From Planctomycetota bacterium (GTDB lineage Bacteria; Planctomycetota; MHYJ01; JACQXL01; JACQZI01), in contig JACQZI010000017.1 of the NCBI GenBank assembly GCA_016207825.1, positions 15,478 through 79,477 of the forward strand: a stretch of 64,000 nucleotides of DNA, in the 5' to 3' direction. Below, one piece after another: positions 5,566 to 64,000 of the stretch. The position numbers and the translations under genes are program-made. The notes below the pieces were generated by a model, which did no database searches, had not been told where the DNA came from, and worked only from the letters and a program-made list of their open reading frames with translations. Positions within the stretch are counted from its first letter, which is position 1. Every line of letters begins with the position of its first letter.

Positions 5566-5985
5566 ATGAGTATTTTTAACATCAGTCCGTTCAAGGAAAA
5601 GGCCTTGCTTGACCGCATGGCGCGGCTGGGAATCAAGGAAGCCGATTTAGAGGAGCAATTCATCCGCTCAGGGGGCCATGGAGGGCAGAATGTCAACAAG
5701 GTGGCGACTTGTGTCTACCTAAAGCACTTACCTACCGGGATAGAGGTCAAGTGTCAGCAGGAGCGCTCCCAGGCGCTTAACCGCTTCCTGGCAAGGCGTA
5801 TTCTGGCTGATAAGATCGAGAATATGATTCTGGGCAAGGCGAGCAAGGAAGAGCAGCGGAGGGAAAAGATACGGCGACAAAAACGCCGGCGCTCAAGGCG
5901 CGCCAAAGATAAGATGCTTCAGGATAAGAAATTGCATTCGTTGAAGAAGCAGAATCGTTCATTTAAACCGAACATGGACGGTTAG
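5566..5985 (+). CDS. arfB: alternative ribosome rescue factor ArfB (peptidyl-tRNA hydrolase, RF-like GGQ protein)
   Basis: A ~139-aa protein with [10 protein letters not shown] (GGQ) and a basic C-terminal tail ([15 protein letters not shown]). Confidence 0.8.
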
Positions 5986-6140
5986 CAGTGAATATACAAC
6001 GGGATTAAACGGATTTAGCGGGAATTAAGTAAGGTGGAGCTTGTCTAAAAACACTTTCCACCTATAACTACCCCTAATAATGCTACAAAATCTTAAATTA
6101 ATTCTTACTGCCCTATTTTTGTAAAATTCCGTTTTAAAAT

Positions 6141-6345
6141 CTCCACTCCTCCCTATGGACGGTTACTCCCTGCCGTATGAAGGGTCTATCCATACCGTAT
6201 AAACCATCCATCCCCGCCCAATAGAGGGTTACTCCATGCCGTACGAAACACTGCTCCCCGCCCTGCGGAATAACCATCCCCACCATACAGACCGCCCCTC
6301 CCTACCGTAGAAATACCCCATAGGGAGGGTGGGGATGGGGGGTAG
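6141..6345. repeat. 22-bp tandem repeat array (about 9 units; inverted copy of the array at 31962-32262)
   Basis: Periodic ggttactccctgccgtatgaag / ggtctatccataccgtataaac units, i.e. the reverse complement of ccgtacggtatgga. The terminal gtagggaggggcggtc matches the boundary of array 2. Confidence 0.8.
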
Positions 6346-6829
6346 TGGTCAGAGAGGTGGAAAATCGCCCCAATTTCTTATAAAACAAGGAGATACAACC
6401 CGGTGACTTCATAACATTCTTGTAAATATGGAGTTAGGCAGTCCGACGCATAAATTCACCATAAAAAGCGTTGTGGTTTTGCCATAAGAAGGGTGAAGGA
6501 AGACGGCGAACCACTAAGGATTCACCGCATGGAAATCGTAAAAATCTTCAAGGAAAAATAATTTTTCCATATAACCACCCCCCATACTTTCTAATTTGAT
6601 TATAGAGGGAGAGATAGTGAGGAAGGCTAAAAGGCTATGAGGCTAAGAGTAAGAAAATATGATAAATTTTAGGGGATTTATAAGATTTTATGTCACATTT
6701 AGCCTTTTTTGTCAATAGACTATGCAAGGGGATATGAAAATATGAAAAATTTTACCAAGAAAATGATTTTTCCTGTCAAAAGGGTGGGGGGTCAAACGCC
6801 TTATAGATAGAGGGGGAAATAAGAATATC

Positions 6830-6916
6830 ATGAATTTTACAGGAATTCCGATTTTTGGATGTCACATTCTGGGTTTTTCCGGGTTAGGTTATGGAAAGAG
6901 AAAGAAAGAAATATGA
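6830..6916 (+). CDS. short upstream ORF (28 aa, MNFTGIPIFGCHILGF...) whose stop overlaps the start of the following peptide gene
   Basis: ATG 6830 sits inside a conserved GGAATTCC-core element. The TGA at 6914-6916 overlaps ATG 6913-6915 (ATGA). I cannot tell whether it is translated. Confidence 0.3.
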   Translation: MNFTGIPIFGCHILGFSGLGYGKRKKEI

Positions 6917-7092
6917 AAAACGGATTAAATAAAGAATCAGTCAGATGGCCGTATCAGCAAAACGGAGGTGTCTGTGATAGCGTTGCGCGTCAGGTGTCAT
7001 GTGTTTGGCGCCAAGCACAGGATTCAGGACGTATGACGCCACGGGACGTTTTGCCGGCCAACTGGCGCTACATTTCGATTGGAGGTGAATAA
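6913..7092 (+). CDS. small Cys-rich peptide with PYQQNGG motif (copy 1 of duplicated cassette)
   Basis: MKNGLNKESVRWPYQQNGGVCDSVARQVSCVWRQ... is ~60% identical to the ORF at 63200. The start is chosen by alignment with the paralog. Confidence 0.55.
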   Translation: MKNGLNKESVRWPYQQNGGVCDSVARQVSCVWRQAQDSGRMTPRDVLPANWRYISIGGE

Positions 7093-7093
7093 A

Positions 7094-7888
7094 ATGAGTA
7101 CAATTAAAAGTCACGCGATGCTGATGATCGGCTGGCCACTGGATACGCCGGCGGATATGGGCGAAAAGTGGCTGGAAGGCATGAAAGCCAATGCGCTTCG
7201 TATCTACCAGAACATTTTAGCCAGAATTCCGGACAGCGGCAAGTTCCAGGAAAGGTTATCCGGTCCATCAAGCACGGGTTACGCGGGTTATGTGAATCCC
7301 GGTTTCGTTTCCAGAAGCGGAGACGAAAGTGGCGATATCCTGAACGGCCAGGTGGCAAACCTGCGGGATTCCTACGAGAAGTTCGTCCGGGGACTTGAAC
7401 ACGCCTTTGAAACCGTGGACGGGGTCGCTGCCAAGCGGTTCAAAGAGAAGGTGGAAAAGGCCAAGGAAAACTTCTTGGCGGGAATGGCCCGGCGCACGCT
7501 CATCTTCGGCGGAACAAGGGTAACGGGACGCGGCGCGGCGGCAATCGCCCCGCACTGGCTCGTGAATGACCTTCGGGTTATGGATTGGCTGAGAGCTGAC
7601 GACAAGGTGCTGGAAGGCGGACCCTTCAAGGTCTGCAAGACTTCCGACCGGTCGGCGTTCAAGGCGGCCCTGACCGAACGGCTCATCCAGGCGGGAATCC
7701 GGATTATCAAATCCGGGCTCTCCCATCCGGTTATCGACAAGGAGAACGACCAGACAAACGCGCTGGTGCAGAAGTTCATCGACCCTTCGCTGGGTCTTGA
7801 ATCTTTTGCCACCGGAGGATTATCCAGGCTTGATTTTATCAAGCAGGGTAACCGTTTGTTCCTGGAAATCCAGGTTTCACAAGTGTAG
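7094..7888 (+). CDS. conserved hypothetical protein, partner of the Cys-rich peptide (copy 1)
   Basis: GGAGG RBS then ATG 7094, 2 nt after the peptide stop. It shares ~35% identity over the central region (VDGVAAKRFK...GRGAAAIAPHW) with the ORF starting at 63385. Confidence 0.6.
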   Translation: MSTIKSHAMLMIGWPLDTPADMGEKWLEGMKANALRIYQNILARIPDSGKFQERLSGPSSTGYAGYVNPGFVSRSGDESGDILNGQVANLRDSYEKFVRGLEHAFETVDGVAAKRFKEKVEKAKENFLAGMARRTLIFGGTRVTGRGAAAIAPHWLVNDLRVMDWLRADDKVLEGGPFKVCKTSDRSAFKAALTERLIQAGIRIIKSGLSHPVIDKENDQTNALVQKFIDPSLGLESFATGGLSRLDFIKQGNRLFLEIQVSQV

Positions 7889-7960
7889 CCATCCCGACAC
7901 TTCGGTCGGGACGTCGCTACGCTCCGGGTGAGCCAGGTCTAAATCCGAATCGGTAAAGAA

Positions 7961-60564: not shown

Positions 60565-62427
60565 TTAATTAAAACTTTTGTTTATCTCTACAAATAGAGG
60601 GATAAAACTCTCGGAAGCCTTAACAGAGCCATTTAACAACGAATTAGCATAATGAATTGCGACACCATTTTTATTAAAGTCTTTAGATAATTTCAGTTTA
60701 AAGTACTGCATTAGTTTTCTTCCTAATGTCCAATTGCTATCGATGCTTAATGAGCAATCATTAAATTTATCAGGTGTTATAGGAGTAAACCAATCAAATC
60801 CCTGATAAAAATCATTTACTGATTTTATATAGATGTCTATGCCGACAAGGTCTTCTATTGATTCGTTTTGATTAGAAGAACCCGTAATTTGATTAATTTC
60901 AATAGTTGGAGTGTGGCATTTTTCAGCTACTTTAATCATATCTTTATTTCCATCATCGCTATCACATAGAACAATTGACTTTTTGTTCTGACTACTAGCC
61001 GTTTTCAGGAATGGTTCTAAAGCCGCACCATCGTTACATGGAATAATGCTTATTTTAGTTAAATCAAGATGCGTTTTCCCATTAGACTTAAAATAATCCG
61101 AAATATTAGCTAAAATTACCTGATCTGATATGCCCTCAACAAAAATATTCTGTTCTCCCAGAAAACCTAAATCGCCAAAGGAAACCCCAATAGACACTTT
61201 TAGAGGATCCCATATATTAAGAAATTTATTTTCATCCCTTGGCGCATAGGGCTTATTATCAATCTTAGTCGCTTTGGTTTTAGGATTTCTGGTAAACAAT
61301 CTAATCCGTTGCGGGAAATTCCAATCTATCATAAAAGGAGAATGGGTAGAATATGCAACTTGATGTTTCTGTGACAATTCATTTAGCATCTTTACAACAA
61401 TGCGTTGTGCGTTAGGATGCAAATTACAGGCTGGCTCATCAAATAAAACAATGGTCTGATTTTCTAATTTTTGGATAAACAAATATTCTATAACAAACGT
61501 TAAAAACCAATTGAGACCTGTCCCGTAATAGCGCAGTTTATTCTCGTCTCGTATCTGTGCTGTTAGAAGAAAACTATTTCTCTTGTAACTGGATTCTTTA
61601 CTGTGACTATTCCCCGCTAGCCTAATCTCGAAAGTAAGATCTGCAGGATCCCTCCACCACTTTTGCAAAACACCTGTTATTTTTTCAGATAATTCCTTTA
61701 ATTTTTGTTCTATTTCCTCTTGAGTAAGATTTAATGGCCTTAGCCGTGGTGAATTATGCTTCGTAGTTTCAGCCCACGGCGCATCTACATTGTGGTTTGC
61801 TCTAATGTTAGCTTTTAAATCTACAATTGAAAGCAGTAATTTTTCCGTAGTAAAAGGCATAAATTCACTAGGTTGATCAGATAGAGGGGTTTCTGTAATG
61901 CATGGACCTGTTTCATAAAATTGTGCTTCAAATAGTTCATTTAGTGCAACTTTTTCAGAAAGATTAATATATCTTATCTTTGGCAAAACAGATTGTTCAA
62001 AGTTTCTCATATCTTCTGTAATAGCCGGAAACTCTGTATTATCTTCATAGATATTGATATTTTCTGTATCGGCTAATAAAGAATATGATTGGTTTTTAGG
62101 TATATCCGAACGATGCTGATAACAAATTGTAATTAGTTTTGGTTTTTTATTCCCTAATAGTTGAGTGAACTTATCGTTTTTGATATCCTTATCTTCAACT
62201 ACCCACAATGAATTAAATCTTATACTGTTTGGATCTGCATTTTTTAACTGGCTTATATCCCAACCGGCCATGCCACCGTTTTTTATGTATTGGTCAAATA
62301 ATCGGTGAAGTATGCTCGTTTTTCCTGTATCATTCTTGCCAATAAGAACTGTTACATAAGGATCAAAAGATAAAGACTGATTTATAAAATGTCTAAATTG
62401 ATGTAGTTTTATTTCTTTTACTTTCAT
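60565..62427 (-). CDS. OLD-family ATP-dependent endonuclease (ABC-type ATPase + Toprim), standalone
   Basis: Walker A GKNDTGKTSIL, Walker B/D-loop VLFDEPACNLHP, H-loop STHSP, C-terminal Toprim (IFVEGISDQVIL ... VLCDSDDGN). The gene is AT-rich. Confidence 0.75.
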   Translation of the reverse strand: MKVKEIKLHQFRHFINQSLSFDPYVTVLIGKNDTGKTSILHRLFDQYIKNGGMAGWDISQLKNADPNSIRFNSLWVVEDKDIKNDKFTQLLGNKKPKLITICYQHRSDIPKNQSYSLLADTENINIYEDNTEFPAITEDMRNFEQSVLPKIRYINLSEKVALNELFEAQFYETGPCITETPLSDQPSEFMPFTTEKLLLSIVDLKANIRANHNVDAPWAETTKHNSPRLRPLNLTQEEIEQKLKELSEKITGVLQKWWRDPADLTFEIRLAGNSHSKESSYKRNSFLLTAQIRDENKLRYYGTGLNWFLTFVIEYLFIQKLENQTIVLFDEPACNLHPNAQRIVVKMLNELSQKHQVAYSTHSPFMIDWNFPQRIRLFTRNPKTKATKIDNKPYAPRDENKFLNIWDPLKVSIGVSFGDLGFLGEQNIFVEGISDQVILANISDYFKSNGKTHLDLTKISIIPCNDGAALEPFLKTASSQNKKSIVLCDSDDGNKDMIKVAEKCHTPTIEINQITGSSNQNESIEDLVGIDIYIKSVNDFYQGFDWFTPITPDKFNDCSLSIDSNWTLGRKLMQYFKLKLSKDFNKNGVAIHYANSLLNGSVKASESFIPLFVEINKSFN

Positions 62428-62654
62428 CTCAAGTTTTTCCTGTTAACAGTCACCGTCCTTTCAGTACTCAGTTTATTGTCATTAGAGCATATCACTTATC
62501 CCTAACGAGGTCAAGAGATAAAACCGAGACGACACAAACAAAGCTTAAAAGATTAATAGTTTCAGGATTAAAGGGAACAGGCAGTAAATGACCAGTTTCC
62601 AACCCCGATATTCATCGGGGCGGGTGAACAATGACCAATGAAAGAGGATGTAAA

Positions 62655-62807
62655 GATGAATATAAACGAGCTGGAGGAGAAATATGAGAAATTTTCATGG
62701 AATTCCAAGATTTTAGGTCAGATTTCACCTCCTCGTGCAAATAACACTATAGCTGGGGGCGGCAAGAAAGCCCGCCTAACGGCGAGGCAGGTAGTGAGCA
62801 GCGAGTA
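62655..62807 (+). CDS. hypothetical small ORF (50 aa)
   Basis: AGAGGA RBS. Preceded by the ccccgatattcatcgggg hairpin and overlapping a GGAATTCC-core element. Coding status uncertain. Confidence 0.2.
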
Positions 62808-62966
62808 GCGGGCAGTGAGGATGACGGGTAATGAGGATGCCGGAAAAGACCGGATATTTTTAAGATTCTTTGTTACTTTAGCCGGTTTTTGGACTGTATA
62901 AGTGGAGGGAAGGGTTAGAAATAACCAATTCCCAAATAACAATGACCAATTAAATAGAAAGGAAAT

Positions 62967-63035
62967 ATGAAGAATTTTAAAGGGATTCCGATTTTCCATG
63001 TAACATTCGGCGTTCCTGACCTATATACCTTATGA
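62967..63035 (+). CDS. short upstream ORF (22 aa, MKNFKGIPIFHVTF...)
   Basis: AAAGGA RBS. The first 14 codons are protein-level similar to the mini-ORF at 6663, with synonymous differences. Confidence 0.3.
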   Translation: MKNFKGIPIFHVTFGVPDLYTL

Positions 63036-63053
63036 AGGGAGGTAAGAGACAAA

Positions 63054-63197
63054 ATGATTAGGAGATTAAGAAAAATGATATATTTTCATAGAATTCCAAG
63101 ATTTTACCGCAAAAGGCAGGGGGGTCAAGCGAATAATAGTATGGAGGGACGGTGAACCACGAAGGGTTCACCGCAAGTATCCCTTAAATGGAGGTAA
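63054..63197 (+). CDS. short upstream ORF (47 aa, basic) ending 3 nt before the peptide gene start
   Basis: Strong GGGAGG RBS. It spans a GGAATTCC-core element and the conserved ggtgaacc...ggttcacc hairpin. Translation not established. Confidence 0.3.
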
Positions 63198-63199
63198 AT

Positions 63200-63388
63200 A
63201 TGAATATAAAGCGATTAAATAAGGAATTGTCAGTCAGCCGACCGTATCAGCAAGACGGAGGTGTCTGTAAAAGCGTTGTGTGCCAGGTGTCCTGCGTTTG
63301 GCGCCAGACGCAAGCCCCAAGACGTATGACGCAACAGGACGTTTTACCGGTTAGCTGGCGTAACAAGAAAGTGGGGATAGTTTTATGA
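63200..63388 (+). CDS. small Cys-rich peptide with PYQQDGG motif (copy 2 of duplicated cassette)
   Basis: GGAGG RBS. MNIKRLNKELSVSRPYQQDGGVCKSVVCQVSCVWRQ... is the paralog of 6913-7092. Confidence 0.6.
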   Translation: MNIKRLNKELSVSRPYQQDGGVCKSVVCQVSCVWRQTQAPRRMTQQDVLPVSWRNKKVGIVL

Positions 63389-64000
63389 CAAACATACTGT
63401 TTGATGTAAAGCTGGAAATACCTGCTTTGTACAAGCCTGCCGGCGATGTCGCCCAAAAGTGGGCGCAGAACCTGGCGGAGCAGGCGGAACTGGTGGAAAA
63501 CCGGCTTATGAAGGCATTGCCCGACGAAGCCAGTTTTCAGGAGAAGCTTGCCACTCCGGCCGCGGAGCAATGGCCCGCCTTTATGTCCGATACCTATCGG
63601 ACCAAAAGAGGCCGTGTTAAGCAGTCGGTAGTCAAGACCTTTGCCAAGAATATTCAGAACGCGTATGACAGCTGGGTGAAGCGTATCAGCCGCGTATTTG
63701 AAGTGACTGACGGGGTCAAGGCCAAAAGGTTCAAGGATGCAGTGCTTGATTCGCAGGAACGGGTTGCCGATGTCTTACGCAAGAAAGCCTTGCGTCTAAC
63801 CGGCGACCGGGTTCACGGAATCGGCGCGGCAGCCATTGCCTGTTTCTGGATGACCGGCGAGCCGACCATAGCGGGTAAACTGCGTCAGGGAGACCAATTG
63901 ATTGATGGTAATCCTTACCGGATTTGCCGGGAGGAGTTTATCCAGTCATTCAGGTCCGCCTTGATGAATCGCCTGATTCAAGCCGGGATGCTGATATCCA
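63385..64000 (+). CDS. conserved hypothetical protein, partner of the Cys-rich peptide (copy 2; 3' end outside window)
   Basis: ATGA overlap with the peptide stop. Paralog of 7094-7888 (TDGVKAKRFK...GIGAAAIACFW). The frame stays open to the window end. Confidence 0.6.
   Translation, partial: MTNILFDVKLEIPALYKPAGDVAQKWAQNLAEQAELVENRLMKALPDEASFQEKLATPAAEQWPAFMSDTYRTKRGRVKQSVVKTFAKNIQNAYDSWVKRISRVFEVTDGVKAKRFKDAVLDSQERVADVLRKKALRLTGDRVHGIGAAAIACFWMTGEPTIAGKLRQGDQLIDGNPYRICREEFIQSFRSALMNRLIQAGMLIS

Follow-up and report, generated by a model that had tools for sequence, protein, structure and literature searches.

What purpose is served by a short element that is repeated several times in a row in front of two related genes? 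The question is raised by two intergenic regions in a 64,000-nt stretch of DNA (the window) from a Planctomycetota bacterium, contig JACQZI010000017.1 of a metagenome-assembled genome (MAG). The original prediction, made by reading the letters of this stretch, described a family of ~45-nt elements with a palindromic core repeated six times upstream of two peptide cassettes, and it proposed that they might encode peptides, bind a dimeric regulator or form a small-RNA module. As detailed below, the repeat is real, lineage-restricted and probably regulatory. In kind it would be ordinary, another case of a promoter and leader region, and what sets it apart is a stacked, type-mixed arrangement, which generates upstream open reading frames (uORFs). 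The elements are probably the upstream halves of tandemly stacked promoter/5'-leader cassettes of ~80-105 nt each. These would be stacked head-to-tail before a small open reading frame (ORF) and a gene encoding a 264-aa protein, and the ~45-nt element would be the part that combines a UP-like (upstream promoter-like) or activator half with a -35 region.

All six elements are present as predicted, on the + strand, at 6653-6700, 6735-6806 and 6821-6875 (array 1) and at 62677-62730, 62960-63010 and 63069-63140 (array 2). The peptides quoted for them are correct, and the G-rich tail common to the elements at 6735 and 63068 is real. Two further copies had gone unmentioned, one without ATG at 6530-6609 and one degenerate at ~62852-62909, and the ~45-nt element turns out to make up no more than the 5' half of a unit that is ~80-88 nt long. 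Long intergenic regions house the two arrays (5985-6913 for array 1, 62427-63200 for array 2). Downstream of each comes first a small ORF, of 59 aa and 62 aa respectively, and then a 264-aa gene. Within the 64 kb, the pattern AATTTTNNNGGAATTCCNAGATTTT has four matches with up to three mismatches, all within the two array regions (0.03 expected), and a profile of the element finds seven copies at E<=0.1, again all in these regions, with nothing outside them better than E=3.

The suspicion that the element is restricted to these cassettes is borne out on a larger scale. When the profile was searched against the window and 83 related loci (378 kb in total), which were sought with a 20-sequence alignment, all 24 matches at E<=0.2 fell on the gene strand in the 1.7 kb that precede a gene of the 264-aa family, a space that represents 12% of the strand-positions searched. 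Being short, repeated and intergenic, and having a minus-strand sigma-70-like TTGACC site in both copies with a type C tail (tail types are defined below), as might be expected of an antisense-RNA promoter, the units could be taken for a genome-wide dispersed repeat or for type I toxin-antitoxin-like tandem repeats unrelated to the cassettes. This is extremely unlikely, since there are no copies elsewhere in the window or in the other 88% of strand-positions, the orientation is always that of the gene and there are no terminal inverted repeats. A stricter pattern, ATGANNWATNTNNNNRGAWTTYNWAGATTT, with two matching copies in the window and seven in relatives, was run against 596 Gb of representative genomes (the source MAG not among them). 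Its matches there, 16 in all, were single, scattered and due to chance; all were in unrelated AT-rich organisms, and none was near a 264-aa family gene. A dispersed repeat of the REP (repetitive extragenic palindromic) or MITE (miniature inverted-repeat transposable element) type was rejected, as no copies were seen in unrelated intergenic places or in both orientations in the loci and genomes searched, and a type I toxin-antitoxin system was rejected as well, as there is no conserved hydrophobic peptide.

Cassette anatomy and putative promoter geometry

The anatomy of the units, like their conservation, position and strand bias, can be read directly from the aligned copies. Phased A/T tracts, AAAT(ATG/CGT)AAAAAT(C/T)T .. 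(A)AGATTT nn (A)AGATTTT, in which the first AAGATTTTC is changed to G(G/A)(A/G)ATTCC in the source MAG, are followed by a T(G/A)TNAC hexamer (TGTCAC, TGTAAC or TGTTAC), a tail of 27-31 nt and a GGAGGG box, after which there are usually a GC hairpin and AGAAAG..GAAATATG, that is, a Shine-Dalgarno (SD) sequence and a start codon. Across ~20 copies covering all tail types, the hexamer-to-G-box spacing stays within this 27-31 nt range and is mostly 28 nt. The tails fall into at least five conserved types (A-E), each recurring in different loci and organisms (type C also occurs in L001, L007 with two copies, L009, L023, L029 and L036, L numbers denoting related loci). Their last ~12 nt are A/T-rich, and 15-18 nt past T(G/A)TNAC there is an A/T-rich hexamer that depends on the tail type (TATATA, TAATTT, TACATT or GATAAC). 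The GC hairpin opens in the G-box, and its arms vary by locus with complementarity kept (GGAGGG..CCCTCC, GAGGGGC-GAAA-GCCCCTC, GGAGAG..CTCTCC). Conservation at the DNA level, one of the possibilities raised originally, is supported.

Such an order is what a promoter followed by a leader would look like, and the cassette would then consist of six parts: (i) the phased A/T tracts, a putative UP-like element or activator site at ~-75 to -36, (ii) the T(G/A)TNAC hexamer, a putative -35 region, (iii) the tail, whose A/T-rich last ~12 nt would be the -10 region, (iv) the GGAGGG box, where transcription would start, (v) the GC-rich hairpin, which starts in the G-box in most relatives and might act as a 5'-terminal stabilising stem-loop, and (vi) AGAAAG(T/G)GAG.AAATATGAARAA, the SD and start codon, which in single-copy loci is where the first gene really starts. 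We place the transcription start at GGAGGG because its spacing from the hexamer is fixed and the hairpin begins there, and this constant distance fits the geometry of a -35 region, spacer, -10 region, discriminator and +1.

The loci of relatives lend weight to this assignment. Close relatives have arrays (two or three units in L005, four or five in L007, four in L008). In distant loci, where the protein is ~35-50% identical, there is a single element without ATG (AAATCGTAAAAATCT...), directly before an operon for a small Cys-rich protein, a membrane-anchored trypsin-like protease (PF13365) and, as last gene, the 264-aa protein. Solo copies fill divergent intergenic regions of ~140-250 nt (L016, L019, L046, L021, L042, L055). 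An example is L016, where ~167 nt separate the divergent start codons and the element takes up 1609-1694. From GGAGGG to the ATG it is 56 nt, a stretch that has nothing but the hairpin and SD. The operon promoter must lie within the element because the element fills the divergent region and leaves no room for another promoter, and a similar arrangement is seen in L019, L020, L021, L022, L042, L046, L055 and L059. In eight loci (L021, L022, L036, L042, L046, L048, L051, L059), the divergent neighbours are an extracytoplasmic function (ECF) sigma factor (Sigma70_r2, TIGR02937) and a zf-HC2 anti-sigma factor; an alternative divergent neighbour in distant loci is a staphylococcal-nuclease-like lipoprotein. 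How solo copies became arrays can be envisaged as well. Most likely, recombination between a gene start, GAAATATGAAAAA, and the 5' edge of a cassette, AAATCGTAAAAAT, which resembles it, would have joined cassettes in series and mixed their types.

Several points weigh against stacked promoter-leader cassettes. The promoter consensus scan did not call the sites in the units, whose hexamers match TTGACA/TATAAT poorly, and sigma-70 and terminator consensus scans of both regions returned promoter-like sites no more often than in shuffled sequence. We infer the start site and promoter activity from geometry alone, and the sigma factor is likewise putative. The units of array 1 are compact (83-88 nt) and have no leader hairpin. 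No ECF sigma gene adjoins the two window loci, nor L001, L005, L007 or L008. The type B tails of L005 and L016 are ~85% identical (own count), beyond the usual need of a promoter spacer, in loci whose proteins are each ~50-66% identical to the window protein, and this strong conservation would point to a function of the tail besides that of spacer. Finally, SD and ATG are kept in 15/15 of the copies that bear an ATG, nearly all of them internal, so that the uORFs could be selected rather than passive by-products. Readings of the element as a sigma-54 promoter (GG-N10-GC) or as a site for integration host factor (IHF) were tried by eye and do not fit, and a literature search on promoter motifs of Planctomycetes gave nothing relevant.

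There is also a bolder version, which we consider unlikely. The arrays would be combinatorial control regions made of at least five ancient, type-specific cassettes, each with an ECF sigma factor or regulator of its own and shuffled among the paralogous loci of a protein family of novel structure by microhomology recombination between gene start and cassette edge, with each internal uORF translated and needed for read-through or stability of the ~0.9-kb leader.

Palindrome, RNA structure and mini-ORFs

The palindrome GGAATTCC, originally seen as the core of the element and as a possible site for a dimeric regulator, does not stand up to comparison, its inverted symmetry being kept neither across copies nor across homologous loci. 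It is exact in two of the six elements (6842 and 62699), that is, in two of the eight window copies. The other four elements read GGGATTCC or AGAATTCC there (a single mismatch each), GGGATTTA (three mismatches) or CAAGAAAA, in which nothing of the palindrome is seen. With 6 occurrences against 2.1 expected, the octamer by itself shows no enrichment in the window. It is not a conserved core because the homologous position in L005, L007 and L008 reads AAGATTT(T/C)C (AAGATTTTC), which is half of a direct repeat, AAGATTTnnAAGATTT. Because these relatives have the direct repeat and distant loci keep only phased T-tracts there, the palindrome is a variant specific to the source MAG, all copies of which share G(G/A)(A/G)ATTCC at each of three loci (L001 and the two window arrays). 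A palindromic operator was rejected on these grounds.

A broader possibility is that the units form binding-site arrays for a trans regulator (activator, repressor or nucleoid protein), which would recognise the A/T direct repeat or the GGAATTCC variant, with a single active promoter, for example in the last unit. The direct repeat AAGATTTnnAAGATTT is indeed in a fixed 9-nt register in relatives, the variant at three source-MAG loci is what co-variation with one trans factor would give (as would gene conversion), and the anti-sigma factors beside distant loci have a winged-helix domain (DUF2582). It is nonetheless quite unlikely, since a hexamer, G-box, hairpin and SD-ATG recur at fixed spacing in each unit, which a pure operator array would not need, since the palindrome is absent in relatives, and since distant loci keep the phasing of the T-tracts and no specific word.

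Could the units act as RNA? Modules of a structured non-coding RNA, or of a long structured 5' untranslated region (as a small RNA or protein sponge), would be in line with leaders of ~0.8-0.9 kb, with the GC hairpin after each G-box in relatives and with complementary G-rich/C-rich stretches in array 1 (6335-6346/6574-6585, 92%; 6577-6590/6779-6792, 86%). As a side observation, the latter could pair over a long range if the whole leader were transcribed. We find this very improbable, because the conserved part of the unit is A/T-rich and unpaired, and because consensus folds by RNAalifold are negligible (-2.9 kcal/mol for type B and -2.5 for type C), with little covariation inside the element. 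Nor is there any Rfam match, at gathering threshold or at E<=5, near the element (there was none in the whole window, and a permissive scan of 5900-7200 gave a best E=4.8 elsewhere in that region). The small-RNA module proposed originally is not upheld.

This leaves the mini-ORFs, whose peptides (M-x-N-F/L-x-G/R-I/F-P/S-R/I-F...) might be functional, either as small proteins or as leader-peptide uORFs that couple translation to the downstream genes. Besides the retention of an SD-like purine run and ATG in every ATG-bearing copy, the arguments for this are that the start of the 6821 copy has moved by exactly one codon, that several type C copies read ..(K/R)(R/K)(V/G)GGQ(A/T) in frame, and that in the L001 copy the ATG has moved but is still in frame (MIPRFSLKRVGGQAN), with third-position differences from the window copy at 63075. 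Much more speaks for another origin, and we hold functional peptides to be improbable. First and solo copies keep the DNA motif and read AAATCGTAAAAAT, with no ATG at the conserved position (window 6530, L016, L019, L020, L022, L001), while the first L007 copy (2187) has TAG in place of ATG. The shortest mini-ORFs have 10 aa and the longest at least 60, their frames shift, and the conservation of type A and B tails continues past stop codons and from one frame to another. At codon positions 1/2/3 the mean column entropy is 0.75/0.65/0.85, with no wobble excess, and the 'RFxRF' motif is the mere translation of the 9-nt DNA direct repeat. A class of small-protein or leader-peptide genes was rejected, start and frame not being kept in all copies and third positions showing no excess, and the original suggestion that the mini-ORFs are coding is not supported.

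The MxNFxGIPxF mini-ORFs appear instead to be by-products of a copied translation-initiation region, as the SD-ATG context of internal units aligns with true gene starts. Under the stacked-cassette reading, internal cassettes would open with SD and ATG AAR AAT because part (vi) of one cassette is fused to part (i) of the next, and the peptides would take the form M-K-N-L/F-x-R/G-F/I-x-R/I-F because the start codon reads on into the A/T tracts. The 'synonymous' codon differences that had been taken as a hint of coding are better explained by the first codons copying the real translation start of the downstream gene. The uORFs are probably translated if the upstream cassettes fire.

The two arrays and their surroundings

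Array 1 (all units on the + strand) begins with unit 0 at 6530-6609 (nhmmer E=0.09), with an A/T-tract half AAATCGTAAAAATCTTCAAGGAAAAATAATTTTT and no ATG, a hexamer TATAAC at 6570-6575, a type D tail nearly identical to L005 46-84 and L019 1584-1623, and a G-box AGAGGG at 6604-6609. Unit 1 (6653-6731, originally placed at 6656) has an SD-like sequence and an ATG at 6659, with the mini-ORF MINFRGFIRFYVTFSLFCQ, then GGGATTTATAAGATTTT, a hexamer TGTCAC at 6691-6696, an A-like tail and a G-box AAGGGG at 6726. In unit 2 (6735-6814, placed at 6735), the ATG is at 6742 and the hexamer TGTCAA at 6774-6779, and the tail is of the G-rich type C, with GGGGGGTCA at 6786 and a G-box AGAGGG at 6809. Unit 3 (6821-6898, placed at 6822) reads ATC ATG, its start being shifted by one codon, and has an exact GGAATTCC at 6842, a hexamer TGTCAC at 6860-6865, a B-like tail and a G-box GGAAAG at 6893, directly 3' of which lie the SD and ATG of the 59-aa ORF.

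Array 2, also on the + strand, is preceded at 62646-62666 by a duplicate of the translation-initiation region of the 62-aa ORF (GGATGTAAAGATGAATATAAA, 90% identical over 21 nt to 63190-63210), which adjoins the 5' side of the first unit of the array and is the footprint of a duplication or recombination. This first unit, at 62677-62759 (originally placed at 62680), has an ATG at 62684, an exact GGAATTCC at 62699, a GGTCAG hexamer, a type A tail (..AATAACACTATA), a G-box GCTGGGGG and then a GC hairpin; its mini-ORF is just 10 aa long (MRNFHGIPRF). The degenerate unit at 62852-62909 has lost its 5' half and retains TTTTTAAGATTCTT, a hexamer TGTTAC at 62871-62876, GGACTGTATAAGT in a type E tail that matches L008 216-255 and L022 1732-1771, and a G-box GGAGGG at 62904. 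Unit 3 (62960-63039, placed at 62957) has an ATG at 62967, GGGATTCC, a hexamer TGTAAC at 62999-63004, a type B tail (..TATATACCTTAT) and a G-box GAAGGG at 63034. Unit 4 (63069-63148, placed at 63068) has an ATG at 63075, AGAATTCC and a type C tail with GGGGGGTCA at 63119, and its G-box GGAGGG at 63143 opens a putative 5' leader (63143-63199, + strand), in which a hairpin GGAGGGACGGTGAACC..GGTTCACCG..CCCTT of -22.9 kcal/mol is followed by the SD GGAGG. The only notable sites in the consensus scans are on the minus strand, TTGACC-N16/18-(T/A)AAAAT in both type C tails (6795-6766 and 63128-63101), and could be antisense or relic divergent promoters.

The first frame after array 1 is the 59-aa ORF (6913-7092, + strand), whose start region GAAAGAAATATGAAAAAC resembles the SD-ATG part of internal units, and its paralogue after array 2 is the 62-aa ORF (63200-63388, + strand). 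The two are 65% identical with a ratio of nonsynonymous to synonymous differences (pN/pS) of ~0.5, and there is an internal palindrome at 6988-7031. No homologue of either was found in the 83 related loci, and the 59-aa product has no match in NCBIfam or PADLOC. The small-ORF position is taken in relatives by a different ORF (MFKGM..., L005-L008) or by an 81-aa ORF resembling helix-turn-helix proteins (L003). The cargo of the array 1 locus is the 264-aa protein gene HY811_07150 (7094-7888, + strand). A second member of the family follows array 2 (63385-64000, + strand) and runs off the window, its 5' part being translated without stops and having no Pfam match. The 264-aa protein belongs to no Pfam, NCBIfam or PADLOC family. 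Its AlphaFold (AF2) model is confident, with a predicted local distance difference test score (pLDDT) of 88.6, and has no credible fold relative in PDB or BFVD. There are at least four further paralogues in the source MAG (locus tags HY811_) and ~110 relatives in metagenomes.

Other features of the neighbourhood deserve mention. Upstream of array 1, at 6130-6327, there is an array of ~9 tandem 22-nt units (~CCGTA..GAA....TCC.C.GC; autocorrelation 0.54 at lag 22), which also occurs in L001 (1926-2222, period 22/44 by TRF, Tandem Repeats Finder), L007 (1500-1830) and L009 (1040-1300), is absent at the second window locus, and could be an iteron-like or regulator-binding array. Directly after it there is a conserved G-box, GGGGG(T)GTAGTGGTC.(C/G)GGAG (window 6328-6352, L001 ~2240-2270, L007 ~1890-1920, L009 ~1285-1310), and further downstream a conserved A(A/C)CAAGA(G/T)GATACA. 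Array 2 is abutted by a minus-strand gene (60565-62427) for a 620-aa OLD-family ATPase with a TOPRIM domain (Pfam AAA_15 and OLD-like TOPRIM), a defence-type gene that matches AriA, Old, GajA and PtuA in PADLOC and whose insertion may have truncated the array. TCCCGA-N-TCGGGA hairpins recur after or around genes in this lineage (L001 ~2805-2825, L009 ~860-930), and the single one in the window (7892-7911), which closely follows the 264-aa gene, may be a terminator or REP-like hairpin. In distant loci, the gene of the divergent nuclease-like lipoprotein has short tandem repeats, TTGGA(T)n and GTTGA(G)n, that give the protein SNPIQ-type repeats at its N-terminus (L016 1515-1560, L019 ~1480-1500, L042 1370-1410).

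Comparison with known systems

If the stacked-cassette reading is true, these loci provide a first candidate promoter/leader architecture for an uncultured lineage of Planctomycetes (A/T tracts, TGTNAC, GGAGGG start and 5' hairpin), as well as an example of how recombination can stack promoter-leader-start-codon cassettes with uORFs as a side effect. They also call for caution, as short SD-ATG mini-ORFs and a chance palindrome can be misread as peptides or operators. The cassettes show where the regulation of the 264-aa family sits, and that family is of greater interest than the cassettes themselves.

Set against known systems, the resemblance to palindromic operators of dimeric regulators is limited to the perfect 8-bp palindrome GGAATTCC in two window copies, whereas the symmetry of the element is not conserved and the homologous sequence is half of a direct repeat. 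A closer parallel is offered by promoters with A/T-rich UP elements and by tandem promoters, of which rrnB P1/P2 of E. coli is an example. Like these, the cassettes have phased A/T tracts 5' of the hexamer in the -35 position, fixed spacing to the putative start and units in series. Unlike these, their hexamers are far from TTGACA/TATAAT, their spacer and discriminator come in five conserved types, and internal cassettes carry a hairpin, SD and start codon, which results in a uORF.

ECF-dependent promoters share two properties with the cassettes, namely (i) the position of the element between a divergent ECF sigma/zf-HC2 pair and the operon in eight distant loci, and (ii) the type B hexamer TGTAAC, which corresponds to the 'AAC'-type -35 found in SigX/SigW promoters of B. 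subtilis (type B is alone in having TGTAAC or CGTAAC, and the hexamers of the other types are TGTCAC, TGTTAC or TATAAG). They differ in that the tail types, when compared, have no conserved CGT-type -10 and that no sigma gene adjoins the window loci. The upstream region of the L046 sigma gene itself looks sigma-70-like when read by eye (TTGACA-N17-TATAGC), unlike the element.

As for the leader, the ompA mRNA is an example of a bacterial transcript with a 5'-terminal stabilising stem-loop. The GC hairpin of the cassettes is similar in that it begins in GGAGGG, at the putative +1, and keeps its pairing while its arms vary; it differs in that it is missing from the compact units of array 1 and that the 5' end of the transcript is itself a prediction. 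Taken together, these comparisons suggest that the element most resembles a promoter region that has A/T-rich sequence upstream and a leader with a 5' stem-loop, and that is possibly ECF-dependent.

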